This document shows, piece by piece, positions 1,076 to 14,417 of a stretch of DNA of 64,000 nt. Under the pieces are notes generated by a model. It had not been told where the DNA came from. It was given only the letters and a program-made list of their open reading frames with translations, and did not search any database. Within the stretch, counting starts at the first letter, position 1. Each line of letters begins with the position of its first letter. The translations under genes were made by a program, and so were the position numbers. The DNA is from an uncultured Nitrospiraceae bacterium (GTDB taxonomy: Bacteria > Nitrospirota > Thermodesulfovibrionia > Thermodesulfovibrionales > Dissulfurispiraceae), in contig CAVPIW010000004.1 of NCBI GenBank assembly GCA_963705105.1, positions 14,336-78,335 on the forward strand, given 5' to 3'.

Positions 1076-4000
1076 TTACTCGACCCTGAAGAGGCCCATG
1101 AAACCATGGAAGCCGCCCTGCGGGTTCTGCATCCGGTACAGGTAGTCGCCCGCCACTCCGAAAGGTCCTCCGGCAGGGAACTCAGGAATGAAGTTCCAGT
1201 GCCCTGCAGGGCCGTAACCCTCCTGGGCGCCGACGACCTGGGACTGCGGGTTGAGCGCGATCTTTGCGGACTCGACGCCGCTCACCGTCTCGTGCGGGGT
1301 GCGCTGCCACGCGTGGCCGTGGATGACCGGCACGTGGGAGCGCTGATTGCCGGCCGGCATGGTGAGATAGAACCGGAACTGCTCACCATTATTGGCCGTG
1401 AAGATCGGCGTCTCAGGGTCAAGTCCGCCCACCTGGGCGTTGCTGTACAGCTTCGCGGTTGCAAAAGTCTGCTGGCCGTTCGGGCCGTTCAGCGGGGTGC
1501 CAGGCGCCATCTTCAGCCTGAACCAGTAGGGCTCGGACTTGTAGTTGAAGGCCTTGAGGCCGGAGTCCTCGGCGTCGTCGGCAACGCCGATCTGCGGGTC
1601 CTCCGTCGGGAAGCCGGGGATCGGCTGGAAGCCGAAGCCGTTATTCGCAAATATCCCTTGCGGGGCCGATGCGAAGTAACCGTTCGTCGCGCCTGTTGTC
1701 ACCGCCACGAACTCGCGGTAGGCCCCTGCAGGGCCCGTGCAGCTCGCCTGGGCCTTTGTCCCGGCGTCGGGCTTGCAGGTCTGGCCTTTCGGTTCGATCA
1801 CCAGAGCGCCCACCATGCCCTTCTGCACCTGCTTGATTTTGTCGGCCGGGGAAAGTCCAACCACGCCGAACTCGATCGGCCGCGGGTTCAGCATCACCAG
1901 GGGAATGCCCAGGATGTTCCCGACCTTTGCGATCGTGAAGTCGCCGGCGTACCAGACGTACCTCGCCGTGCGGCCGGGGCCCACGGTGTTCGTCAGGTTC
2001 TTCCCGACATTGACACCGTCGTCCCTCTCGGGGTCGAAGGCGAGGAGCTGCGTGTGAATGCCGACGTGGCTCGACGGCCTGATGTCGTTGTTGTTGAAGG
2101 TCGGCTTGAACGGTGCGCCCGCTGCATCAACAATGCCCCTGCAGTCATAGTTCGGGCACTTGTCGATGATCGGCTCGAGAGTCTGCGTGATGCCGTTCAG
2201 GTCAGGCACGTTGTTCGGCAGCCGGTTCGTCAGGCTGACGTGGACGCAATCGCCCGCGTTGGCCCTCAGGATCAGCGGCTCGGGGGCGATCGTCCCGGCC
2301 CTGAGGCCGGCGATGTCGGCGTTGTTTACATAGAGAATGGCCGTCGGGTCGTGCAGAGGTCCCGCGCCACCGGGGACGGTGAAAGCAGGCTCACCGATGG
2401 CCGGGTCGGCAGGTATTACGTTGTCCGGAACGACGTCGTCCCTCGAGTTGTAGACCAGCGTGCCGCCCGTGGCGCCGCCCAGCGGGTTCACGATGCCGGG
2501 CACCGCGGGCAGGATGTCCCGTGCCATGATGGCCGTGATGTTGAACCTCTTGACCGGCGCATTTTTCGGACAGACGCCGTTCAGGAAGTCGAAGTCGAGC
2601 CTGTTGGCCACTATGGCGGGCTTGTTGCCCACAATGCTGTTGGGCAGCGGCTTGAGGTCAGCCCTCAACTGGTTGTACGACCGCATAAGGCCCCACTCGC
2701 CGGTCCAGAGCCCGCTCATCGACATGTTCGAGGCGTACATGTAGTCGGTCGAGGGCTGGAAGCCCGGCAGTACCGAGAGCAGGTCGCCCAGGACCGCGGA
2801 GTCGAACTGGAACTGCTCGGAGATGCCCATGGACTGGTGGTTCTTCCAGCCCGAGTTCGGGTCGGCGTAGTTCATGAGCCACTTGGCGCCGTGCATGCTG
2901 AAGTGGTGAGACTCCTCCGTGGCGCCCACCTGCATCCTGATCTTCACCCGGTCGCCCTCGTAGACCCTCATCATCGGCGTGGCGGGGTCGAAGGCCCCCA
3001 CGTCCTTGCTGAGCGCCGTGGCAGCGACGTTGATGATCGGGGCCCCGATGCCGGCAGCAGTCGGGGTCGGCAGCGGCGCCGCCAGACCGTTCAGACAGAA
3101 CGGGTCGCCAAGCGGGTTGCCAACGTCGCCGCAGGTCCCAACACCCGGGGTGGCGAGACAGGACGGGCACTGTTTCGTGTTTCTTACGTAATACTGCATC
3201 ACGTTGTTCAGGTCGGGGTCGGCCCTCCGGATAGACGCAAAGGCGAAGGAGAGGTCTCCGGCCTGGCCCGCGGCCTGTTTGGTGGCAACAGGATCGAAGA
3301 CGCGGGCGCCCACAGACTCGTTCCGGTAGTTCACGATCTCGAAGCCCTGGTCAGAGCCGCCGATGGCCTCGGGGCAGGGGCTGATCGGGAGAGCGCCGCC
3401 GGGCAGTGCGGGACCCGGGCAATCCTGCGCAAACACATAGATCGCCAAGGGGTCTCCGTCCCTCGAAGGCCTCGCGATGGCCTCGAGGAAGCTGACATCA
3501 GAGATGAAGCCGTCCCAGGTCTTCTTGTAGGCCTGCTGGAAGTCGGAGTTCTCGAAGTAGAACTCGCGGTACGGCGTCGGGTTGTAGCTGCTCGAACCTG
3601 CCGGCGGGATAATCTGGGCCTGCCACGAAGTGGGGCCGCCATCGGCAGTGAGGGTCTGAGGCGAGCCGAGACGGTTTGCCAGAGGCGCGCCGGTCTCGTT
3701 GTGAATCCACTTCGACCCTGCAGGCTCGGCGAGAATGGTCGCGTAGAGGCCGATCTGCTGGAAGGTGGAAGGACCGAAGTGGTCATGGGTGAAGACGTTG
3801 CCGATGCCTCGGTCCTTCCCGGTGCTGTCGAGCACGGGGTCGGCCAGCCAGCGCTGGACCGTCGTCCGGGAGCCGCAGGTGGCGCCGCCACAGCCCAACG
3901 CGGCCGCTTGAGGTGACCCCGCAAACTGGGGAATCCCGTCAAGGGTGGGGTGCGGCTTCGGTATCAGCTGGGCCACTGTCGGACCCGTTGCAGTCGGTTT

Positions 4001-7000
4001 CCATGCGCCCGCCTTGATCGCCTTGATCCTCTCGACGATCTCGCCGGGGCTCATGGTGCCGTCCTCGTAGTTCCAGAGGTTCGCCGCGCCGTCAGAGGAG
4101 GCCACGTCGAACTTGGTCATGTGCGAGTGCTGGGCGATGATGTCGGTGGGTGTCCTGACCTGGAAGTCATCCAGCTCGTAGAAGTTCGGCACCAAGTTGC
4201 TGTGCCAGACCTCTGCGCAGTCAAGGGTGTTCAGCCTGAAGACCATCGGCGCAGGGGCCAGTTTGCCCGCGTACATGTCGGGGATGTCTCCCCAGAGGGC
4301 GATGATCCTCTGCTGCGGGAAGTGCCAGCCCTTCTTGTTCAGCACCAGGTCGATCTGGATGTTGCTGATCTTGTAAGGCCTGAGACTGTCGACCCCGAAC
4401 TGGACGGCCTCGGGAAGTACAAACCCGTTGCAGTTGTCCCCGTCAGGGTTGTCGGCCCGCGCCAGTGAGCAGTTCGGGCTGTTCCACGTGGGCGTGAAGC
4501 CCTTCACCAGCATGTCGCCCTTGCTGTCCACGCAGGGGTCGCTGTGGGGCGCGCCGGGGACTGCCTTCGCTGCGCCGTTGGTGATATAGCCGCCCCTGAA
4601 GGGCTTGCCCTGTTTATTACTTCCTTGGCAGATTGCCTCGACTGCAGCGTTGCCGGTCTGGGTCCACGTGTTGTGGCACCTCTTCTGCTGGAAGGCAAAG
4701 GAGTCCTTCTCGACGGCAGTTCCGGCCTCAGGCACCTGCTCGGCCTCGACTGCCAGGAGCTCCTTGCTGATGTCGAAGCGGTTCACGACGAACTCCGCCT
4801 CGCCGCCCGTGATGATGTGCCTCGGCAGGCCGCCGTCAAGCGAGTTTTTCAACGGGTTGGGGCATTCGTTGTTCGCGTCAAGAGGCACAAGGCACGCGAT
4901 GTCCAATGGCGGAGAGGGCGGACGGTGTCCGGCGATTGCCCCCCGATCGGCATTCGCCGCCATGATGTAGAACGGGAAGCCGGGGTTCTTCTCTTTCGTG
5001 ATCGGGTTCGGCTCGACGATGATCCTGCGCGGGTCTGCCGGGTTGATCGCCACTGCGGCAGGGGCCGGCGCCATCGGGTAGAGCGGCAGGGGAACCACCG
5101 CCGGGACCGGCGAGCCGTTGCACATGCCGACGCAGACCTTCTTCAGCGTGGTCCCTTGCCCACAGGGAGGTACGCTCTGTGTGCCGTCGGTAGCTACACA
5201 TGCATCAACCATCGCCAACTCGCCGTCGGGGTATGCGCGTGAGCCCGGTGCGGGAGGCGCGTCACGTTGCGCCCAGACTGCCCTCGTGCCGTCAGCAGCA
5301 AGGAGCGGGTCCAGCAGCGTGCCCTCGGAAAAGGTGTCGAGCATCCTGAGAGACGACCACATGCCCTGGGCGAAATGAGGATAGAAGTGGCAGTGGTAGA
5401 TCGCGTCGCCGGGGTTGGCGTTCCTGTTACCCGCACCCTCGTTCGTCAGGTCCATGGTGTAGGCGCCGCCGGGGCCTATCTGCTGCATGTCCTGGTAGTT
5501 GGCCTTGTCGCTCTTGGGCGAGAAGACCCACTGGTTGTTGTGCAGGTGGAAGATGTGGTGCTCGAAGGCACCTGCATGGATGTTCCTGAACTTGAAGTGG
5601 TCCCTGATGTAACTGTGGTGCACGTTGGACGGGTTGTCCGGGTAGAGCGCCACAGTCGCCTTGGGGCCGGGACCGGGAAGGTCCTGGGGCCCGCCGCAGA
5701 AGACGGGGTTCACGCCATCGGGTATCAGACCTGCAAAAGGCCTCACAAAGGGAGTGACCGCCGGGTCTGCGGAGATGTTGTTGACGAGCGGGTTGTTGAG
5801 GTCCTGGACGCAGCCGTTGGCAGGCACGTCGACCCACATGCCGGGGTCGCCCACCGCGTAGGAGGTGAGGAAGAACTCCTCGGCCTTGCACTCGGGGCAG
5901 TCCCACATGGGGCCCACGGCAAGCCTGTTGGCCACAATCTCGGGGCCGATGGCGCCGCCGCCGTAGTTGATGACGAAGCCGTCCTTCGTGATCGCGAAGG
6001 TGTGCTTCAGCACGGGGTTCACGAAGAAGAACGGGAAGGCCTGGACGTTGAACTGCTCGTCACCGAAGACCGAGGCGGCCTCGCGGAAGGGCAGGTCCTG
6101 CCGGGGGTTCGTCGAGGTCGACGGGTAGGTCGAGCCGATACCGAACGTGCCCTTTTTCGGGCCGGTGATGACGGCGTGGATGTCGCTGTGCACGAGCTTC
6201 GTGCCCTGCAGCATCGCCAGGATCGGCCGCCCTGCCTTGCCCTCATCCTTGAAAGGCTGGACATCGGGGTAGAGCGCGTCATAGTTGATGACCGGCTGGT
6301 CAGCCGCCGTCCTGTTCTGGTTGGCCTTGTCAAGGCAGGAAATCGAGGGGTTCGGGCCGGCAAGGACGGCAGGCTTGCACGCCGCCAGGGCCATGTCCTC
6401 GTTGGTCACGTGGCCGCGGTAGTACTCGGCCGCCGCCGACGGCATCCCGGGGATGCCGGGCTCCACGATCACCACACCGTAGAGTCCGAAGGCCAGGCTT
6501 CCGCCCGCGCCCTCCGAGCCGGTCGTGTTGGCCATGTTGGTGATCATGTAGACGTTCTCGTCCTGGGCGTAGTAGGTGTATATCTTCTGTTTGCCCGGCG
6601 CGGCAAGGCTGCTCGCGTTTTTACCGACCCAGGAGCCGTCGCTATCGATGCTACCCACGAGCGGCAGGCCCGTCACGTGCGCCGAGGCGTCACGGGTGAC
6701 GTTCTGCTCGTTCGGGTCGATCGGAACGGGGTTTAAGAGGTTTGTGAAGTTGATCTGCAGGCAGTCGCCCTTGCTCACGCGCAGGGCGATGGGCTGCGGC
6801 CTCTTGTCGGGGCGCAGCACAACCTGGCCTGCCTGGCAGCCGCCACCTACGCATGGTGTCTTGCCGATGACACCGCCAGTGATCGGAAAAACGTCCTCGG
6901 CCAGGGCATAAATCATGCCCAGGTTGTTCAGCGAGCCGAGTCTGTTCAGGAAGTAATTCTGGTCGAGGGCGATCACGTCGGCAACGATTGTCCGGTTGCA

Positions 7001-7108
7001 AGCCGCTTGATTCGCAGCCGCCTTGTCGGGCGTCGCGAAGCCGACGATGAGCCCCAGGACCAGAATCAGCACAGTGAGTGCCGTCCATCGTGGTATCTGG
7101 TCTTTCAT
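1076..7108 (-). CDS. mnxG: Giant secreted multicopper oxidase, MnxG (Mn(II)-oxidase)-like
   Basis: 2010 aa with an N-terminal signal peptide. Copper motifs HHIFHLH, YHCHFYPHFAQGM (T1 Cys/His/Met), QHSH, THDH, HHFSMHG and HVPVIHGH. Segments PLVLR-like, DDFQVRTPTDI and GDYLYR are typical of MnxG-family oxidases. Confidence 0.85.
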   Translation of the reverse strand: MKDQIPRWTALTVLILVLGLIVGFATPDKAAANQAACNRTIVADVIALDQNYFLNRLGSLNNLGMIYALAEDVFPITGGVIGKTPCVGGGCQAGQVVLRPDKRPQPIALRVSKGDCLQINFTNLLNPVPIDPNEQNVTRDASAHVTGLPLVGSIDSDGSWVGKNASSLAAPGKQKIYTYYAQDENVYMITNMANTTGSEGAGGSLAFGLYGVVIVEPGIPGMPSAAAEYYRGHVTNEDMALAACKPAVLAGPNPSISCLDKANQNRTAADQPVINYDALYPDVQPFKDEGKAGRPILAMLQGTKLVHSDIHAVITGPKKGTFGIGSTYPSTSTNPRQDLPFREAASVFGDEQFNVQAFPFFFVNPVLKHTFAITKDGFVINYGGGAIGPEIVANRLAVGPMWDCPECKAEEFFLTSYAVGDPGMWVDVPANGCVQDLNNPLVNNISADPAVTPFVRPFAGLIPDGVNPVFCGGPQDLPGPGPKATVALYPDNPSNVHHSYIRDHFKFRNIHAGAFEHHIFHLHNNQWVFSPKSDKANYQDMQQIGPGGAYTMDLTNEGAGNRNANPGDAIYHCHFYPHFAQGMWSSLRMLDTFSEGTLLDPLLAADGTRAVWAQRDAPPAPGSRAYPDGELAMVDACVATDGTQSVPPCGQGTTLKKVCVGMCNGSPVPAVVPLPLYPMAPAPAAVAINPADPRRIIVEPNPITKEKNPGFPFYIMAANADRGAIAGHRPPSPPLDIACLVPLDANNECPNPLKNSLDGGLPRHIITGGEAEFVVNRFDISKELLAVEAEQVPEAGTAVEKDSFAFQQKRCHNTWTQTGNAAVEAICQGSNKQGKPFRGGYITNGAAKAVPGAPHSDPCVDSKGDMLVKGFTPTWNSPNCSLARADNPDGDNCNGFVLPEAVQFGVDSLRPYKISNIQIDLVLNKKGWHFPQQRIIALWGDIPDMYAGKLAPAPMVFRLNTLDCAEVWHSNLVPNFYELDDFQVRTPTDIIAQHSHMTKFDVASSDGAANLWNYEDGTMSPGEIVERIKAIKAGAWKPTATGPTVAQLIPKPHPTLDGIPQFAGSPQAAALGCGGATCGSRTTVQRWLADPVLDSTGKDRGIGNVFTHDHFGPSTFQQIGLYATILAEPAGSKWIHNETGAPLANRLGSPQTLTADGGPTSWQAQIIPPAGSSSYNPTPYREFYFENSDFQQAYKKTWDGFISDVSFLEAIARPSRDGDPLAIYVFAQDCPGPALPGGALPISPCPEAIGGSDQGFEIVNYRNESVGARVFDPVATKQAAGQAGDLSFAFASIRRADPDLNNVMQYYVRNTKQCPSCLATPGVGTCGDVGNPLGDPFCLNGLAAPLPTPTAAGIGAPIINVAATALSKDVGAFDPATPMMRVYEGDRVKIRMQVGATEESHHFSMHGAKWLMNYADPNSGWKNHQSMGISEQFQFDSAVLGDLLSVLPGFQPSTDYMYASNMSMSGLWTGEWGLMRSYNQLRADLKPLPNSIVGNKPAIVANRLDFDFLNGVCPKNAPVKRFNITAIMARDILPAVPGIVNPLGGATGGTLVYNSRDDVVPDNVIPADPAIGEPAFTVPGGAGPLHDPTAILYVNNADIAGLRAGTIAPEPLILRANAGDCVHVSLTNRLPNNVPDLNGITQTLEPIIDKCPNYDCRGIVDAAGAPFKPTFNNNDIRPSSHVGIHTQLLAFDPERDDGVNVGKNLTNTVGPGRTARYVWYAGDFTIAKVGNILGIPLVMLNPRPIEFGVVGLSPADKIKQVQKGMVGALVIEPKGQTCKPDAGTKAQASCTGPAGAYREFVAVTTGATNGYFASAPQGIFANNGFGFQPIPGFPTEDPQIGVADDAEDSGLKAFNYKSEPYWFRLKMAPGTPLNGPNGQQTFATAKLYSNAQVGGLDPETPIFTANNGEQFRFYLTMPAGNQRSHVPVIHGHAWQRTPHETVSGVESAKIALNPQSQVVGAQEGYGPAGHWNFIPEFPAGGPFGVAGDYLYRMQNPQGGFHGFMGLFRVE

Positions 7109-7227
7109 GATTTGTTCTCCTCTCTCATGTTAGACATGTTCATACTTGTTCCCTCCCCTCGTGGGAGCCGCCTGAAATGCGTTTTCCCCTTTAACAGGGA
7201 ATCCCTTGTGCTCTCACCTCCCTTTTG

Positions 7228-7626
7228 TTATGGCAGTGGTACACTGTCGAGCCATTCCTTTGTCTGGCCCCTGTTGTTTTCCTGTATCCTGCGGGCGAAG
7301 TCCTCGAAGTCGAGCGGCTTTTCGAGAAAAGCGACGACGCCGAGCGCCGCAAGCCTCTGCTCCGTGTCATTGTTCAGAAAGGCCGACATGACCATGACGG
7401 GGATGTCGGGGTGTCTCCTGTTCATCTCGCCGATGAGCTCGAACCCGTCCATGACAGGCATGAAGAGGTCGGTGACGACGAGGTCGATGGGCTTCCTGTC
7501 AAGGATTTCCAGCGCCTCTTTCCCGTTGAGGGCCGTGAAGACCGCCAGGCGCTTCGAGGAGCACAGGCCGTCGCAGAGGCTCTGCAGAAAACCCGCTTCA
7601 TCGTCCACGACGAGCACCTTTTTCAT
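7228..7626 (-). CDS. Single-domain response regulator (CheY-like)
   Basis: MKKVLVVDD...DLVVTDLFMPVMDG...FLEKP. ATG at 7626 follows a purine-rich RBS. Confidence 0.9.
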   Translation of the reverse strand: MKKVLVVDDEAGFLQSLCDGLCSSKRLAVFTALNGKEALEILDRKPIDLVVTDLFMPVMDGFELIGEMNRRHPDIPVMVMSAFLNNDTEQRLAALGVVAFLEKPLDFEDFARRIQENNRGQTKEWLDSVPLP

Positions 7627-7695
7627 ATCCCTCTTTCCTCTTGCGGAGGGCAATTACGAACCTGCCAACCGTTTCGCGCCTTTTTTTTCAATATC

Positions 7696-7790
7696 ATTAT
7701 GCGCTATGGACGAGGGGATGTCTATGGAAAGAACTACCTATTTAACGGTCCGCAGAAATACCTATTTGGGGGTAGGTAGAAATACCTACC
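7696..7790 (-). promoter_or_regulatory. Promoter cassette 1: three TACCTA boxes (24-bp period) plus -10 CATAAT
   Basis: TACCTA at 7735, 7759 and 7783. The third box is part of the palindrome GGTAGGTA-gaaa-TACCTACC. CATAAT lies on the minus strand at 7696-7701. Confidence 0.7.
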
Positions 7791-7954
7791 GACCCTTCCT
7801 TTTCAGGACACGGGTCAATCGGGAGGTCGACGATCTTGTAAGGCCTGAGGTTGGGTTTACCGAGCGGGGAGCTCAGGGGGTCGTCGTCGCCATGAACTGG
7901 ATTTTCACGACACTTCGTCTTCGTCTTGCCTTTCCATGCAACGACAGGGTGTAA

Positions 7955-7990
7955 AAAATGAAGAAGCCGCAGGCTTCAGCCTGCGGCTTC
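7955..7990 (-). terminator. Terminator/REP-like hairpin after the ELWxxDGT gene
   Basis: GAAGCCGCAGGCT-tc-AGCCTGCGGCTTC followed by T-rich sequence on the minus strand. Similar cores occur at about 18165 and 43865. Confidence 0.6.
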
Positions 7991-8015
7991 GGGCTCTGCG
8001 ATTGAGAAGCCCTCT

Positions 8016-9857
8016 CTACGGCCCGGGCACGACCAATATCGTCTGCCACACGTAAAAGGTGCCTATGTCCCCCGCCTTTGTTATCGCCACAAAGAAATTG
8101 TAATCGGCCGGCGGAAACAGACTGAGCGGGATGGCGTTAAACAGCCCGGCGCTCACCTGAGTCGTCACATCCTCCCGCCAGGGCACGAAACCCTCGGAGA
8201 GCGGACGCAGGGTGAAGTCCGGATGGAGTATGAAAATCTCCGGAGTCAGCTTCGGCGCTGTTATCGCCACGTAGATATCGATTGGACCGGCATAGGGTCC
8301 CGTAGCAAGGCTCACGCGCACTGCGTCCCCGCCTGAGGCTGCGCTGCCGAGGCCGAGCGGCTTGGCGTCGGCAGGCGCGGCGCCAACCACGGGGTCGTCG
8401 ACAGCCTGATAGAGGAACACCTCCTTGCCGGCAGGCAGGGGCAGCAGAACGGCGTCGGGCCTGAGGACCCACAGTTCAGAGCCGTCAACGCCGTCATCGG
8501 CTGCAAAGAAGAGCGTGCCGCTCACGTTTGCGAGAAAAGCGGGAGATGACGGGCTGGCGCCGGGGTTGATGTCCTTGACCAGGACGGTACCGGCCGCCGT
8601 GCCGTCGCTCTTCCACAGCTCGAGGCCGTTCGTCCCGTTTTCCGCCGCGAAGTACAGCGTGCCGTTCACGTTTGTCAGGGAATCCAGGAACGAGCTTGTC
8701 GCCCCGGGTGCGATGTCCCTGACAAGCACCGTGCCGGCCGCCGTGCCGTCGCTCTTCCACAGCTCGAAACCGGTGGTCCCGTTGTCGGCGACGAAAAAGA
8801 GCGTACCGCCCACGTCCGTAAGAGATGCCGGCAAAGAGGGAAGCGCACCGGGATTGATGTCCTTGACGAGGACCGTGCCCGCCGCTGTGCCGTCACTCTT
8901 CCACAGCTCGAGGCCGTCGGTCACGTTTTCGGCGGCAAAGAACAACGTGCCGTTGACATTCGTCAGAGATCCCGAAAAAATCGATGAGGAATTCCCTGCG
9001 AAGATGTCCCTGACCAGGACGGTCCCGGCCGCCGTCCCGTCGCTTTTCCACAGCTCGAAACCGTTCGTCCCGTTGTCCGCCGCAAAGTACAGCGTGCCGT
9101 TCACGTTTGTCAGGGAATCCGGGAACGAGCTTGTCGCCCCGGGTGCGATGTCCTTGACGAGGACCGTGCCCGCCGCCGTCCCGTCGCTCTTCCACAGCTC
9201 GAAACCGGTGGTCCCGTTGTCGGCGACGAAGAAAAGCGTGCCGTTCACGTTCGTCAGGAGGTCCGGGGAAGAAGGGGCGATACCGGGGTTGATGTCCTTG
9301 ACGAGGACGGTCCCGGCCGCCGTCCCGTCGCTTTTCCACAGCTCGAAACCGCTAACGCCGTCGTCGGCCACGAAAAAAAGCGTGCCGTTGACGTTCGTCA
9401 GGAGACCCGGGGAAGAGGAGGCGACACCGGGGCTGATGTCCCTGACAAGGACGGTCCCCGCAGCCGTCCCGTCGCTCTTCCACAGCTCGACGCCGCTGAC
9501 GACGGCATCAGCCACGAAAAAAAGCGTGCCGTTCACGCTCGTCAGGAGGTCCGGGGAAGAGGAGGTGATACCGGGGTTGATGTCCCTGACAAGGACGGTC
9601 CCCGCAGCCGTCCCGTCGCTTTTCCACAGCTCGACGCCGCTGACACCGTCGTCGGCTGCGAAATATGCCACTCCGCCCACGTCCGTTATGTTCGCAGGGT
9701 TGGAGCCGAATATGCCGGGCTGTATGGTTATTGAGACGGGATCCGCCCCGAAGGTCAGCCCCGGAAACACCGGCACTATAAACAGCAACGCAAAAAAGAT
9801 CGCCCTCCTGAGAAAAACTTCTATCATCGTCCCTCTTGTTAACCGATTGCGCCCCAT
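8016..9857 (-). CDS. Secreted ELWxxDGT-repeat (beta-propeller) protein with a 142-aa C-terminal domain
   Basis: Signal peptide, then eight about 48-aa ELWKSDGTAAGTVLV(K/R)DI repeats plus a partial ninth. Confidence 0.9.
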   Translation of the reverse strand: MGRNRLTRGTMIEVFLRRAIFFALLFIVPVFPGLTFGADPVSITIQPGIFGSNPANITDVGGVAYFAADDGVSGVELWKSDGTAAGTVLVRDINPGITSSSPDLLTSVNGTLFFVADAVVSGVELWKSDGTAAGTVLVRDISPGVASSSPGLLTNVNGTLFFVADDGVSGFELWKSDGTAAGTVLVKDINPGIAPSSPDLLTNVNGTLFFVADNGTTGFELWKSDGTAAGTVLVKDIAPGATSSFPDSLTNVNGTLYFAADNGTNGFELWKSDGTAAGTVLVRDIFAGNSSSIFSGSLTNVNGTLFFAAENVTDGLELWKSDGTAAGTVLVKDINPGALPSLPASLTDVGGTLFFVADNGTTGFELWKSDGTAAGTVLVRDIAPGATSSFLDSLTNVNGTLYFAAENGTNGLELWKSDGTAAGTVLVKDINPGASPSSPAFLANVSGTLFFAADDGVDGSELWVLRPDAVLLPLPAGKEVFLYQAVDDPVVGAAPADAKPLGLGSAASGGDAVRVSLATGPYAGPIDIYVAITAPKLTPEIFILHPDFTLRPLSEGFVPWREDVTTQVSAGLFNAIPLSLFPPADYNFFVAITKAGDIGTFYVWQTILVVPGP

Positions 9858-10152
9858 GTCTTCCTCCCTGTTGTGCCGTTCTCAGCATTATTACTCACGA
9901 CCCTGATTTTCAAATGCCTCATATTGCCTCATATTTTAACAAGCCTCACCTGCTATCCTTAAATTATCATCCACCGGGCTGAACATGTCAAGAGCGTGCA
10001 ACAATGCGCATTTGGCCCTCCCTGCATGCAGCTTAGAACTATCATTACTCCGACTGTCACCCTGTGCTTGCCCGCTAATCCGGCATTCGGCTGTCGTATT
10101 CCCACCGTCGCGGGAATGACGATTTCAAAATGATAAAAAGATTCACTCTTCT

Positions 10153-10247
10153 ATTATAGGCCATGAAATGAGTGGCATCCATGGGAGAAACTACCTAATA
10201 TGGGGTCTGCAGAACTACCTATTTTAGGATGGGCAAAACTACCTATA
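10153..10247 (-). promoter_or_regulatory. Promoter cassette 2: three TACCTA boxes (24-bp period) plus -10 TATAAT
   Basis: TACCTA at 10192, 10216 and 10240. TATAAT lies on the minus strand at 10153-10158, the same geometry as cassette 1. Confidence 0.7.
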
Positions 10248-10267
10248 AGAATAGTAACGAGGAATCA

Positions 10268-10564
10268 GGACTGAGGACTGAGGAACAAATTACGGCACAA
10301 AAAACAGTAAAAAAGGACTCAGTTAGGGTTTGTGAGATAAGACAGTCGCGAGGACTGAGGACTCAGTTGCAGGGTACGGGTTGCGCCTAAAGCAGACGGT
10401 ACAAGGTGCACGGTATACGGTCCACGGGAAATTGAATACAGAATGCAGAATATAGAATTCAGAATTCGGGAGATCCAGTCTCCAATCTCCAGCCTCTAAC
10501 CTCTCCGTCTCTGACCCTGAACCCTGGACCTCGTACCTTGAACCGATCTTTCTGATCTCCAATC
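10268..10564. repeat. Mosaic of degenerate 7-mer tandem repeats
   Basis: Units GAGGACT, CAGAAT(A/T/G), CAATCTC and ACCCTG(A/G) lie between the regulator and cassette 2. Confidence 0.6.
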
Positions 10565-11215
10565 TCAGATGTAACCTTTTTTGATTGCATATTTGATGAG
10601 GTCGGCCGTCATCCTGACGTTGAGCTTCTTCTTGATGTTGGCGCGGTGGTGCTCGGTGGTCCTGACGCTGATGAAAAGCAATTTTGCGATCTCCCTGCTG
10701 GACCTGCCCTCGGCGATGAGCTTGAGGATCTGCCGCTCCCGCGCCGTCAGGAGTTCGGGTTCGCCTGCAGGCTCGGTGGGTGTCCGAAACGCCCGTGCCC
10801 AGTCGGCGATGACGTCCTCCCCGAGGCTGGGCGACACATAGACCCGGCCTTCCCGGACCCTCCCGATGGCGGAGAACAGCTCCGAGTCGGCGTCCTCTTT
10901 GAGGAGATACCCGTCGGCGCCGGCGGCCATGGCCTCTGAAAGGTACTTTCTCTCGCTGTGCATGGTGAGGATAAGGACCTTGATGCCGGGCCGGATCGTC
11001 CTGATCTCCCCGATCGCCTCCAGTCCCCGGAGCCTCGGCATGGAGAGGTCAAGGATGACCATGTCGGAGGGCGTCTTCTTCAAAAGGTCTATGAGATCGA
11101 GGCCGTCGCCCGCCTCACCGACCACCCGCATCCAGTCCGCACTTTCGATGAGCATCCTCAGCCCCTGCCTGAGGAGAGTGTGATCGTCGGCGAGCACGAT
11201 GCGATACGCGTTCAT
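10565..11215 (-). CDS. NarL/FixJ-family response regulator (REC + LuxR HTH)
   Basis: IVLADDH...MVILDLSMP...GYLLK...LTARERQILKLIAEG.SSREIA..LFISVRT...HR.NI..KL. Confidence 0.95.
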   Translation of the reverse strand: MNAYRIVLADDHTLLRQGLRMLIESADWMRVVGEAGDGLDLIDLLKKTPSDMVILDLSMPRLRGLEAIGEIRTIRPGIKVLILTMHSERKYLSEAMAAGADGYLLKEDADSELFSAIGRVREGRVYVSPSLGEDVIADWARAFRTPTEPAGEPELLTARERQILKLIAEGRSSREIAKLLFISVRTTEHHRANIKKKLNVRMTADLIKYAIKKGYI

Positions 11216-13971
11216 TCTTTATTCTCGGGGATCAGGATGTCCACGATAGTCCCTTCACCGTAGTGACTGACGACATTGATGGCGCCGTTCATCTTGGCTG
11301 TCATCTTCCTGGCGATCACGAGGCCGAGACCGGTGCCCCGTTCCTTTGTCGTCCGGAAGGGCTTGAAGAGGTCTCTCTGCTGCTGCTCCGACATGCCCCG
11401 GCCGTTGTCGACGACCCGTATTTTGATCATGTCTTCCATTTTCGTCACGGCGAGCTCGATGACCGGGTCGTCCCTTCCGTCGACGGCGTCCATGGCGTTG
11501 CTCACGATGTTGAGCAGTACCTGCTGGAGGGCCCGCGGGTCGGCATAGGCCCGGGGGGCGTCAGGGGCCACGCTGCTTTTCACCCCTATGCCCCTGCTCC
11601 CGCAATCGTCCGATACGAGGGCGATGAAACGCTCCATGAAGGCGTTCATCCCGATCTCCCGGATCTCCGGCACTTCATACATGTTGAAGTTCCTGAGCGC
11701 CTTAAGGAGATACTCGACACGTGATATCTCACTCATGCAGCGGTTGATGTACTCGGTGATGTCCTCTTTCGTAAAACTGTCGATCCTGTTTCTCAGGACA
11801 CCGAGGGTGATCTTGAGGGAATTGACGGGGTTGCCGATCTCGTGACGGATGCCCGAAAAGACGTAGCCGATATTTTCCATGGTGTTGACGGCCTCGGCGA
11901 TGGACTCGAGACGCATCCTCTCGGTGACGTCCCAGATCATGCCGAGGAGGCCCCTGATCGTCCCCGCTTCGTCCCTGATGGGTGTCTTGAAGACGCGGAT
12001 GATCATCTCCTTGCTGTCTTTCCAGTATCGCTCCACAACCTCAACGGGTTTTCCCGATGCTATAATCGCCCTGTCCTCGGCGATATGTTTTTCCGCTGAA
12101 GACGGCGGATAAAGGTCCCTGTCCGTCTTTCCGACGATCCGCTCCGGTGTCAGGCCCAGATCACTCGCGTAGCTGTTGTTACAGTAGACATAAACAGAGC
12201 GGCAGTCTTTCAGGAATATCTTCTGGGGAAGGTTTTCGACGAGCATCCTGAACCTGTTTTCGCTCTCCCTGAGGGCTTCCTCGGCCAGCATCCTGTCGGT
12301 GATGTCGCGGTTGTTCCCGCGGGTCCCGAGAAAAGAGCCGCCGTGGTCGAAAACAGGCTGGCAGACATGGCCGATCCGGCGGATCGCTCCGTCCGGCTTT
12401 ACAATGCGGAACACCGTTTCGTCAAAGGTCATCCGCAACTCGGCGCTCTGACGGTGGTGCTCGAACGCTTCCCTGTCATCAGGGTGTATGATGCTCGTGA
12501 GCAGACCGGGGTCGCCCATGAATGCGTCGGCGTCATGACCGGTGATGCGTTTGCACGAGGGTGACGAGTAGATGAAACGGCCGTCGGTCCCGATCCAGAA
12601 CTCCCAGTCGTACGTGTTGTCCGCAACGATCTGGTATCGTTCTGCGACGATCCTGTATCTTGCCTCCGATTCCCGGAGGTCCCTCTCGACACCCTGCCGC
12701 TCTTCGACGTCGGCCGCGAGACGCTCATTCAGGTCCTCCAGCTCCATCGTCCGCTCCCTGACTCGTTTTTCCAGCTCTTCCTTGACAGCGATTAGGTCAT
12801 CCGTAGACGTTTTTAACTCCTTTGTCATGATGGTAAAAGAGCGGGCCAGGTCACCCACCTCGTCCCGCGAGGAGGCGTCGACGGCAATGTCGAAGTTCCC
12901 CTTGCCGACGTCCGCCACGGCGTCCCGGAGTCTCACGAGGGGCGCAGAGATCGTCCGTGCGATGCGATAACCGAGAACGACGGAAATAAAGACGGCGGCA
13001 ATAAAGAAAATAAGTGCCGTGCGCTGGAGCGACAGGGCGTTCATCACTGAGGTTTCACGAACGCGGTCGGCCAGAACCAGGTAACGGTCCACGATTTCGC
13101 CTGCCACCAGCCCGATCACGTGCCGGGTGCCGATCAGTTTTTGGATGTCATCGCCGTGTTTTTCGATTATTTCTCTTTTTCCCTTTCTCGTTTCTCCGTC
13201 ATACAGACGGAGGATCGATGCCCCCTCATCCATCAGTGACGCCGATCCGGCTTGCAGCGATGCAATGCCCTCCCTGTCTTCGGCAGCGGTCGCCCACTCG
13301 TCGAGATAGACGATCCGGCTGTCCAGTGAAGCCCGTTCCCCGAAAAAATGTCCCCGGTCAACCGGATCGTGCAGCACAAGATAAAAGATCATGTGACTCA
13401 CAGCATGCTTTGCGTGGCTGTTCGCTTCCGCTGCCGTCATGATCGCCGCCTGCCTGTCATGGGCGCTCGTCTCGATCCGGATGAGTCTGAGTGTTTCGGC
13501 GCGGACGGCGTTCGTCGATTCCTGCAGGCGCCGCACCGGTTCCCTGTTTCGCTCGAAAAAGAACGCCCTGTCACCTATCATCTCCCTGTCATGGATATCG
13601 AGAAGCTCCCGCTGGACGGCAAACACTTTCTCCGTATCGGCCATAATCCTGTCAAGGATCTTTCTTGCCTCAGGCAGTTTCACTCTCTCCTCCAGCAGGG
13701 AAATCTCTCCGCCGGCGGACTGCTGGAGTTTCACCACCTCGGCGCGGTCGGCCGGGTCCTGGCGGGCAAGGAAGAGCATGAGGTGGATCTCCGCCTCTGT
13801 GACGTCATCGAAGAGGGCCATCGCCGCGGCACAGATGGCCTTGAAGTGCTCCTCTCTGCCCTCGAAAGACCGGATGATTTCTTTGCCGGCAATGAGGGCG
13901 AAGATGCCCGCAAGTCCGACGAGCAGAGCGATGGCAAGGAATCCGGCGATGATCTTGTGGTGGATCTTTAT
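11212..13971 (-). CDS. Membrane sensor histidine kinase (periplasmic helical sensor, HAMP, 2 PAS, HisKA, HATPase); probable ATA start
   Basis: RHEIGNP H-box, NAMDA N-box, DNGRG and GTGLGL. The frame stays open upstream of the track's ATG and encodes TM1 (IKIHHKIIAGFLAIALLVGLAGIFALI). An AGGAG RBS lies 7 nt before ATA at 13971. Confidence 0.85.
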   Translation of the reverse strand: MKIHHKIIAGFLAIALLVGLAGIFALIAGKEIIRSFEGREEHFKAICAAAMALFDDVTEAEIHLMLFLARQDPADRAEVVKLQQSAGGEISLLEERVKLPEARKILDRIMADTEKVFAVQRELLDIHDREMIGDRAFFFERNREPVRRLQESTNAVRAETLRLIRIETSAHDRQAAIMTAAEANSHAKHAVSHMIFYLVLHDPVDRGHFFGERASLDSRIVYLDEWATAAEDREGIASLQAGSASLMDEGASILRLYDGETRKGKREIIEKHGDDIQKLIGTRHVIGLVAGEIVDRYLVLADRVRETSVMNALSLQRTALIFFIAAVFISVVLGYRIARTISAPLVRLRDAVADVGKGNFDIAVDASSRDEVGDLARSFTIMTKELKTSTDDLIAVKEELEKRVRERTMELEDLNERLAADVEERQGVERDLRESEARYRIVAERYQIVADNTYDWEFWIGTDGRFIYSSPSCKRITGHDADAFMGDPGLLTSIIHPDDREAFEHHRQSAELRMTFDETVFRIVKPDGAIRRIGHVCQPVFDHGGSFLGTRGNNRDITDRMLAEEALRESENRFRMLVENLPQKIFLKDCRSVYVYCNNSYASDLGLTPERIVGKTDRDLYPPSSAEKHIAEDRAIIASGKPVEVVERYWKDSKEMIIRVFKTPIRDEAGTIRGLLGMIWDVTERMRLESIAEAVNTMENIGYVFSGIRHEIGNPVNSLKITLGVLRNRIDSFTKEDITEYINRCMSEISRVEYLLKALRNFNMYEVPEIREIGMNAFMERFIALVSDDCGSRGIGVKSSVAPDAPRAYADPRALQQVLLNIVSNAMDAVDGRDDPVIELAVTKMEDMIKIRVVDNGRGMSEQQQRDLFKPFRTTKERGTGLGLVIARKMTAKMNGAINVVSHYGEGTIVDILIPENKE

Positions 13972-14141: not shown

Positions 14142-14417
14142 ATGACGAACTCCACTCTGCGCGGGGGCCTGATCGGCACGATAATGGACTATGCCTCGAC
14201 GCTGCGGTTCCCGAGGCTTGTCGCCGTCACGGCGGCAATCTTTCTCATCGACCTCATCATCCCGGACTTCATCCCCTTCGCTGACGAGATCCTCCTCGGC
14301 CTGTTGACACTGATCCTCGCGTCGTTCAAGAAGCGGAAAGAAGAGCGGAAAGAGGACGCCGGCGGGCCGGTCATCGACATCCGTCCCGAACCGCCCCGGA
14401 AGGGGCAGGGACAGTAA
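14142..14417 (+). CDS. Small membrane protein (DUF6116/YkvA-like)
   Basis: LRFPRL...LIIPDFIPFADEILLGLLT motif; AAGGAG RBS. Confidence 0.7.
   Translation: MTNSTLRGGLIGTIMDYASTLRFPRLVAVTAAIFLIDLIIPDFIPFADEILLGLLTLILASFKKRKEERKEDAGGPVIDIRPEPPRKGQGQ

Follow-up and report, generated by a model that had tools for sequence, protein, structure and literature searches.

A NarL-family response regulator and 24-bp-phased inverted-repeat operators suggest a small multicopper oxidase regulon in an uncultured bacterium of the Nitrospirota

NarL of Escherichia coli is a response regulator in which a receiver domain is joined to a LuxR/GerE helix-turn-helix; its dimers occupy 16-bp inverted repeats of heptamers with the consensus TACYYMT, and regulators of the wider NarL/FixJ family are usually partnered by kinases of the HisKA_3 type (NarX, UhpB or DesK), although this pairing is not strictly defining. 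A 7-2-7 site, TACCCCT-AA-AGGGGTA, is given for NarL in an excerpt of PMC4549865, and in an excerpt of PMC10853779 the sites from which NarL activates are centred at -43.5 for yeaR and at -44.5 and -77.5 for ogt, with Lys188, Val189 and Lys192 contacting bases. Here we analyse a window, by which we mean a whole stretch of 64,000 nucleotides (positions 14,336 to 78,335 of contig CAVPIW010000004.1, hereafter C4, assembly GCA_963705105.1), from an uncultured Nitrospiraceae bacterium whose genome (G000) comprises 4,226,846 bases in 19 contigs. Two arrays of inverted repeats lie in this window beside the gene of a NarL-type regulator, one ahead of genes for a receiver-only protein and an MnxG-like multicopper oxidase and the other ahead of a gene for an ELWxxDGT repeat protein, and it is this regulator that we propose as their reader.

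Activators of the LuxR/TraR kind have the same family of helix-turn-helix and work from a palindrome that overlaps or abuts the -35 element, in class-II-type activation, with the lux box centred near -42.5; the present arrays resemble them in this respect, but LuxR and TraR bind ligands, have no receiver domain and use a single 20-bp box rather than phased arrays. Manganese oxidation in Pseudomonas putida GB-1 is under the sigma-54-dependent control of the two-component system MnxS/MnxR, which likewise stands over large multicopper oxidase genes, and two paralogues of the MnxG-like gene elsewhere in G000 carry promoters of the corresponding -24/-12 type. The paralogue in the window, unlike these, has a sigma-70-type -10 element and a NarL-type operator array, and its proposed regulator is of a different class. 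Literature searches on multicopper oxidases and response regulators in Desulfobacterales, on MnxG under LuxR-type two-component control and on ELWxxDGT proteins found nothing on this system. What follows is a standard comparative-genomics regulon inference of a NarL-family, class-II-like kind with an unusual operator layout, and involves no new mechanism. For a two-component system not characterised before, from an uncultured bacterium, it supplies a testable operator, a promoter geometry and a regulon of three units, and it ties that system to very large secreted multicopper oxidases of anaerobes.

A preliminary description of the window had placed three TACCTA boxes in each of two promoter cassettes of identical geometry, and its coordinates, spacings and distances to the -10 element proved exact to the base. 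On the plus strand TACCTA starts at 7735, 7759 and 7783 in array 1 and at 10192, 10216 and 10240 in array 2, a spacing of exactly 24 + 24 bp, and in both cassettes a minus-strand -10 hexamer (CATAAT at 7701..7696, plus strand 'attatg', in cassette 1; TATAAT at 10158..10153, plus strand 'attata', in cassette 2) starts 39 bp from the proximal box, leaving 33 bp between box and hexamer. The perfect 8-4-8 palindrome reported there is likewise present, at 7771-7790 (GGTAGGTA-gaaa-TACCTACC). The boxes themselves need a different reading, being only the strong halves of 7-4-7 inverted repeats and not plain direct repeats. An alignment of the arrays along the direction of transcription gives the unit (A)TAGGTA-N4-TACCTA(T), followed by 8 bp (6 bp between heptamers); from this alignment, the TACCTA boxes are best taken as the strong arms of 16-bp inverted-repeat operators (7-4-7 if written ATAGGTA-N4-TACCTAT), which stand two or three to an array at a phase of 24 bp. 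Pairing of the arms across N4, 10 bp from centre to centre, is favoured over N8 because the arrays begin with TAGGTA and have no partner 14 bp upstream, and because N4 gives each strong arm a partner. An array from another genome, G296, reads TGAGTA-N4-TACTCA, with both arms altered, which is consistent with binding by a dimer.

In array 1 the distal operator (7773..7788, minus strand) is a perfect TAGGTA-gaaa-TACCTA that forms the core of the palindrome and is centred at about -91.5 of the predicted transcription start. The middle operator (7749..7764, minus) has its strong half TACCTA at 7759-7764, a 4-bp spacer and a degenerate 'tccgca' at 7749-7754, with its centre at about -67.5, and the promoter-proximal operator (7725..7740, minus) combines TACCTA at 7735-7740 with the spacer 'gaac' and a degenerate 'tggaaa', centred at about -43.5. 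Array 2 (10182..10245, minus) contains operators at 10182-10197, 10206-10221 and 10230-10245 and is matched by the array profile described below at E 2.3e-10. The partner arm is thus perfect in the distal unit of array 1; at a third locus, on contig C10, it is good (TGCCTA), and the proximal units have degenerate partners (TTTCCA, CTCCCA). As with NarL, the dimer sites are 16-bp inverted repeats, and a box with its next base, TACCTAT, fits the NarL consensus. The layout differs, since TAC is innermost here with 4 bp between hexamers, whereas in the NarL site of the excerpted PMC4549865 TAC is outermost with 2 bp between heptamers, and the regular 24-bp arrays are a further departure from NarL.

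As a plain hexamer TACCTA is unremarkable in the window, with 9 occurrences against 4.33 expected (3 of 100 shuffles reach 9), and both strands of the 4,226,846 bases hold 229. Its phased form is a different matter: TACCTA-N18-TACCTA occurs as four pairs in the genome, all of them belonging to the two window loci. The inverted repeat TAGGTA-N4-TACCTA is found genome-wide at one site with no mismatch (array 1), at one with a single mismatch (the C10 locus) and at nine with two mismatches, array 2 among them. An array profile (R1), built from sequence only on 17 two-unit stretches, recovers only the two window arrays and one further locus from G000 (E 2e-10 to 1e-8); below these, the next match again belongs to array 1, being its third unit, and has E 0.93. 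The third cassette, found by a weight matrix from the six window boxes and by the profile search, lies on C10 with TAGGTA at 65159, TGGGTA at 65183, a 33-bp gap and TATAAT at 65222-65227; it has two units in the same 24-bp and 33-bp geometry as the window arrays. Hence the small regulon of twin cassettes first described stands in that its geometry is unique in the genome to these loci, and has to be enlarged in that at least three promoters share it. Each of the three loci sits upstream of a gene start, and with so few copies the motif is not a dispersed repeat, the explanation against which the preliminary description had asked to be checked.

Repeats without function, left by mobile elements or by a local duplication, might also produce such arrays. 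Cassettes 1 and 2 do have sequence in common between box and -10 element (CCATRG twice), as a duplication would leave, and hairpins resembling miniature inverted-repeat transposable elements (MITEs) are found nearby. An origin of this sort is nonetheless extremely improbable, given that there are three copies only in 4.23 Mb, that the bases separating the functional positions have drifted apart (17 of 33 are identical, counted by eye) and that arrays with the same phase and -10 distance are kept across three families, over regulator identities of 49-61%.

The proposed reader is encoded at 10565..11215 on the minus strand and has the architecture of E. coli NarL. Its receiver domain (Pfam Response_reg, E 1.6e-26) aligns 'ILDLSMP', containing Asp56, with 'LLDLNMP' of NarL, and its C-terminal GerE/LuxR helix-turn-helix (Pfam GerE, E 6.3e-17, residues 155-210), with the recognition helix ...RTTEHHRAN..., aligns through helix alpha9 of NarL, which is the best match among solved structures (E 9e-30). 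It is not NarL proper, scoring 133.9 bits against a cut-off of 250 for the NarL equivalog model NF007935. The best named NCBIfam model is MctR (NF052445), and at 184 bits against a cut-off of 300 the protein is not that equivalog either; kinases next to its orthologues score best to MctS. Directly upstream, at 11212..13821 on the minus strand, lies a gene for a HAMP-PAS-PAS histidine kinase of the HisKA type (PF00512), whose stop codon overlaps the regulator start and which is therefore the presumed partner.

On the sequence evidence we consider it likely that this regulator binds the 24-bp-phased operators and activates a three-unit copper-oxidase regulon in the class II manner of NarL. The co-transcribed PAS kinase would, on a signal that we presume it to sense, phosphorylate Asp56, and a dimer of the phosphorylated regulator would then occupy each operator by way of the LuxR-type helix-turn-helix. 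The proximal dimer, at about -43.5, would then activate transcription as NarL does at yeaR, and the dimers further upstream, centred at about -67.5 and -91.5, would act as at ogt and would contribute cooperativity to operator occupancy. The regulon would comprise the receiver-only gene with the MnxG-like multicopper oxidase (unit 1), the ELWxxDGT repeat protein (unit 2) and, on C10, a frameshifted multicopper oxidase with Fn3-like repeats, an SCO1/SenC copper chaperone and a cytochrome c protein (unit 3); its targets would be secreted copper oxidases and not, as for NarL, genes of nitrate respiration. Three loci in G000, together with conservation alongside the regulator in other genomes, mark these units as a putative regulon under one factor. 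The core of the preliminary description, a small regulon of twin cassettes with the adjacent NarL-family regulator as its proposed activator, came through all the computational tests aimed at refuting it.

The promoters agree with this arrangement in their spacing. Core promoter 1 (7696..7724, minus) consists of TAGACA (7724..7719), a 17-bp spacer and CATAAT (7701..7696), with 10 of 12 consensus matches and a predicted start near 7689. At promoter 2 the -10 element TATAAT (10153..10158, minus) lies 33 bp from the proximal half-site and predicts a start near 10146, with no good -35; promoters 2 and 3 of G000 both lack a recognisable -35. The promoter-proximal operator ends 23 bp ahead of the -10 element. 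If that element is taken as -12 to -7, with the predicted start 7 nt past it, this operator spans -51 to -36 with its centre at -43.5 and abuts the -35 position; in array 1 it directly abuts the -35-like TAGACA. A proximal site so placed, with further sites upstream, would resemble the layout of NarL sites at yeaR and ogt, as excerpted from PMC10853779. Across 14 arrays, TAnnnT was found at a gap of 33 in nine, of 32 in one and of 34 in one, to which G000 array 1 adds CATAAT at 33, against six TAnnnT matches in total at all other gaps from 20 to 49; the arrays of G282 and G238 have no TAnnnT at gaps 32-34.

The same positions bear on the sign of regulation. A regulator bound to the arrays could instead repress or block transcription, for instance as a barrier to polymerases that read through from its own operon or by keeping RNA polymerase off the promoter. 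In most genomes the regulator gene is indeed followed at once, on its own strand, by the array, promoter 1 with its fair -35 could fire without an activator, and NarL is itself a repressor at some promoters, according to the excerpt of PMC4549865. Repression is nevertheless unlikely, because the proximal operator ends at about -36 and covers neither the -10 element nor the start, because two of the three G000 promoters and most of the orthologous ones have no recognisable -35, as is typical of activator-dependent promoters, and because the predicted centre at -43.5 would equal the activating position of NarL at yeaR.

The association between arrays and regulator extends beyond this genome. Orthologues of the regulator, accepted at E<=1e-60 and with identities of 49-61%, were found in 16 of 300 further genomes of the order, in three families, and in none of the 54 from G000's own family; the orthologue is also present in four metagenome-assembled genomes labelled Desulfobacterales, Desulfobacteraceae or Deltaproteobacteria. 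An exact or one-mismatch search for TACCTA-N18-TACCTA in G035, G025 and G037 gave fewer matches than the reversed-pattern control, none of them convincing, and a weight matrix and the profile were used instead because the arrays of the orthologues depart from this pattern at two or more positions. The matrix, made from the six G000 boxes only, was run on both strands of 21 orthologue loci (82,182 bases) at spacings of 12-40; 12 of its 16 pairs fell at exactly 24 bp, in 10 of the 21 loci, where shuffled sequence gave 0.1 pairs per round at that spacing, and the remaining pairs fell at 23 bp (two), 17 bp and 27 bp (one each). The profile matches 12 of the 16 regulator-positive genomes at E<=0.01 (G025, G035, G282, G058, G155, G184, G220, G224, G229, G238, G284 and G296), although 11 of these 12 had supplied training rows and the genomes are related, so that the counts overstate independence. 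In 150 other genomes of the order, searched with stricter filters, only four were matched at E<=0.001, all of them regulator-positive. In nearly all cases the array, like array 2, stands on the regulator's strand just past its stop codon, and its distance from the regulator gene seldom exceeds about 6 kb.

Several matches come from outside the training set. G025, G155 and G035 each have a second array near the regulator gene; in the first two it comes after a receiver-only gene, and in G035 it stands ahead of a gene for a 1703-aa secreted protein with SdrD_B domains. G284 has four three-unit arrays of this class, one of them ahead of a multicopper-oxidase-like open reading frame (ORF). Multicopper oxidase genes follow or adjoin an array or the regulator in G000 (two units), G037, G238, G284 and G025. 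G000 has no match to the large SdrD_B-domain secreted protein encoded downstream of arrays in G155 and G035, and that protein is unrelated to the MnxG-like one.

The dependence among these counts is one of a number of points that weigh against activation of the three units by the adjacent regulator. A convincing array is lacking from four of the 16 regulator-positive genomes, of which G053, G232 and G252 gave no profile match and G037 gave one only at E 0.064, on another contig. The G000 kinase is of the HisKA rather than the HisKA_3 type, unlike the kinases of NarL, and for the kinases next to the orthologues in G035 and G025 the best-scoring models are those of MctS, UhpB and NarX; the sensor kinase appears to have been exchanged in G000. 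In most operators one half is degenerate, and with a phase of 24 bp each dimer would be rotated by about 100 degrees relative to its neighbour, whereas dimers that bind cooperatively usually share one face of the helix. A transcript from promoter 2 would carry a leader of about 290 nt. Within the stretch that encodes this leader, and closer to the ELWxxDGT gene, lies a stronger promoter of sigma-70-like sequence (TTGACA-17-GATAAT, 11 of 12 matches, 9991..9963, minus), and the gene may therefore have a constitutive promoter besides the regulated one. Neither of the two MnxG-like paralogues on contig C9 has an array upstream. Finally, the regulator orthologue of G037 (L031:7509-8120) contains an internal TAG. 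This gene directly precedes a PhsA-like multicopper oxidase, a 1864-aa SdrD_B/beta-helix secreted protein and another oxidase, with only a weak single box ahead of the first oxidase, and the array system may be decaying in this genome.

A link between the adjacent regulator and the arrays also comes from the recognition helix. The HMMER alignment sets ...RTTE-H-HRAN... of the regulator against ...STVK-V-HVKH... of NarL, and therefore His189 of the regulator corresponds to the base-contacting Val189 of NarL. Histidine at this position accompanies the half-sites TAGGTA and TAGGCA in seven genomes (G000, G229, G058, G184, G282, G224 and JARRQO) and arginine the half-sites TACGTA and CAGGTA in four (G025, G155, G220 and G035); asparagine in G296 goes with TGAGTA, the other arm being TACTCA, and threonine in G238 with TACGTA and TTTGTA. 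This pattern suggests that the half-site sequence co-varies with the residue equivalent to Val189, in genomes that also share phylogeny. Together with the operator layout, the apparent residue-to-base co-variation makes a compact natural data set on specificity change in LuxR-type helix-turn-helix proteins.

Such co-variation also bears on whether the arrays, as real operators, might be read by some other DNA-binding protein. Binding by the adjacent regulator does rest on inference, G000 encodes at least one other NarL-type paralogue (C9:44582, 39% identity) and many other regulators, and the third locus adjoins a sigma-54-dependent regulator pair. That another protein is the reader is improbable all the same: among the genomes searched, arrays were found only in those with an orthologue and nearly always no more than about 6 kb from it, the half-sites shift with the recognition-helix residue of this regulator, and no other DNA-binding gene is conserved beside the arrays.

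A further alternative places the function of the repeats in RNA, as 7-4-7 hairpins towards the 3' end of the regulator mRNA or within 5' leaders, where they could serve processing, stability or protein binding. Perfect units such as 7771-7790 could form an 8-bp stem with a 4-nt loop, and the arrays follow the regulator stop codon on the same strand. Most units, however, have one degenerate arm and are unable to pair (TAGGTA/TGCGGA, TAGGTA/TTTCCA), and what is conserved is the sequence of one arm, not complementarity. The fixed 33 bp to the TAnnnT hexamer is a property of promoters, the C10 locus is not downstream of any copy of the regulator gene, and positions 7000-11000 gave no Rfam match at E<=0.1. 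A role in RNA is accordingly very improbable.

Returning to activation by the adjacent regulator, the receiver-only gene adds a possible refinement. It is the first gene after the array in unit 1 of G000 and in G025, G155 and G220. In the latter three genomes its product duplicates the receiver domain of the regulator itself (48% identity, for the G025 protein, to the N-terminal half of the regulator), whereas the G000 protein belongs to a different receiver lineage, with 24% identity to that of G025. A receiver-only protein made first may provide feedback as a phosphate sink. More tentatively, and as a possibility that we regard as doubtful in its entirety, the arrays would be platforms for a helical stack of two or three dimers, read by a distinct NarL-family clade that operates an extracellular oxidase switch with a phosphate sink and residue-recoded half-sites. 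If this were true, the switch would be dedicated to the extracellular multicopper oxidase machinery of lineages from anaerobic sediment (MnxG-like and OmpB-like enzymes with SCO1, cytochrome c and large secreted proteins made of repeats), and a single residue, the equivalent of NarL Val189, would recode the half-sites from TAGGTA (His) to TACGTA (Arg) or TGAGTA (Asn).

The five window genes at 1076-13821 (kinase, regulator, ELWxxDGT, receiver-only and oxidase) all lie on the minus strand. The receiver-only response regulator, the first gene of unit 1, spans 7228..7626 (minus; 132 aa; Pfam Response_reg, E 1e-23). The oxidase gene follows it at 1076..7108 (minus), and its 2010-aa product, which the preliminary description had called mnxG, scores 1328.9 bits against a family cut-off of 3100 (NCBIfam NF041487), has no Pfam domain at E<=0.001 and can be called MnxG-like only. 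No promoter-like or terminator-like site was found in the 119-bp gap between the two genes; array 1 therefore precedes a receiver-oxidase unit, and its genes are probably co-transcribed. Array 2 precedes the ELWxxDGT gene (8016..9857, minus), which encodes a 613-aa protein with a signal peptide and nine repeats (TIGR04534, 612.5 bits against a cut-off of 65). An intrinsic terminator after this gene (7963..7990, minus), with a 12-pair stem followed by a T run, divides the two transcription units.

Downstream of the third array, the C10 unit consists of a large multicopper oxidase with Fn3-like C-terminal repeats, an SCO1/SenC copper chaperone and a cytochrome c / periplasmic-binding protein. 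By BLASTP the MnxG-like protein has no significant similarity to either half of the C10 oxidase, and therefore the regulon would join two different types of multicopper oxidase. The C10 oxidase is split by a +1 frameshift near L001:9985-10000, which may come from an assembly error, mark a pseudogene or have another cause; its frames, L001 7302-10097 and 9823-11961, overlap, and the break lies around 'GNQT / LDGGGAPNTQPGYGPN' (L001:9960-10020). The neighbour of this locus is the sigma-54-dependent regulator pair, and no copy of the array regulator gene is found upstream.

The two further MnxG-like paralogues on C9, of about 1976 and 1931 aa, have N-termini almost identical to that of the window protein. 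Upstream of them are sigma-54-type -24/-12 elements, TGGCAT-N5-TTGC, at C9:309404-309419 (L119:3325-3340) and C9:317799-317814 (L123:3551-3566), both on the minus strand, and a common block with repeated ATGACAG/TGACAGG motifs. With an array at the window paralogue and -24/-12 elements at the C9 pair, the three MnxG-like paralogues therefore appear to stand under two regulatory logics.

Other repeats accompany the arrays. The MITE-like, GC-rich hairpins ('GTCATTCCCGC...GCGGGAATGAC') are located at about 10060-10125, in the leader below promoter 2, and at L001 ~7020-7130, just upstream of the third array, and similar GC-rich hairpins stand beside an array in G284 (L040). The 315-bp spacer between the regulator stop codon and array 2 is made up of one block after another of different period-7 tandem repeats, at 10259-10496 (GAGGACT x3.7, ACGGTAC x4.6, GAATACA x4.6 and TCCAGTC x3.3).

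Lone high-scoring boxes in G000 (C7:117646, C2:27228 and others on C16, C14, C5 and C12) were rejected as regulon members, having no 24-bp partner and no correctly spaced -10 element. At C19:54203-54208 (L086:8204-8209, minus) a lone TAGGTA is followed by sequence like that of cassette 1 (GTTCTTGTCATGGGAATC...), with 28 instead of 33 bp to CATAAT; this box precedes an unassigned 117-aa ORF and may be a degenerate fourth site.

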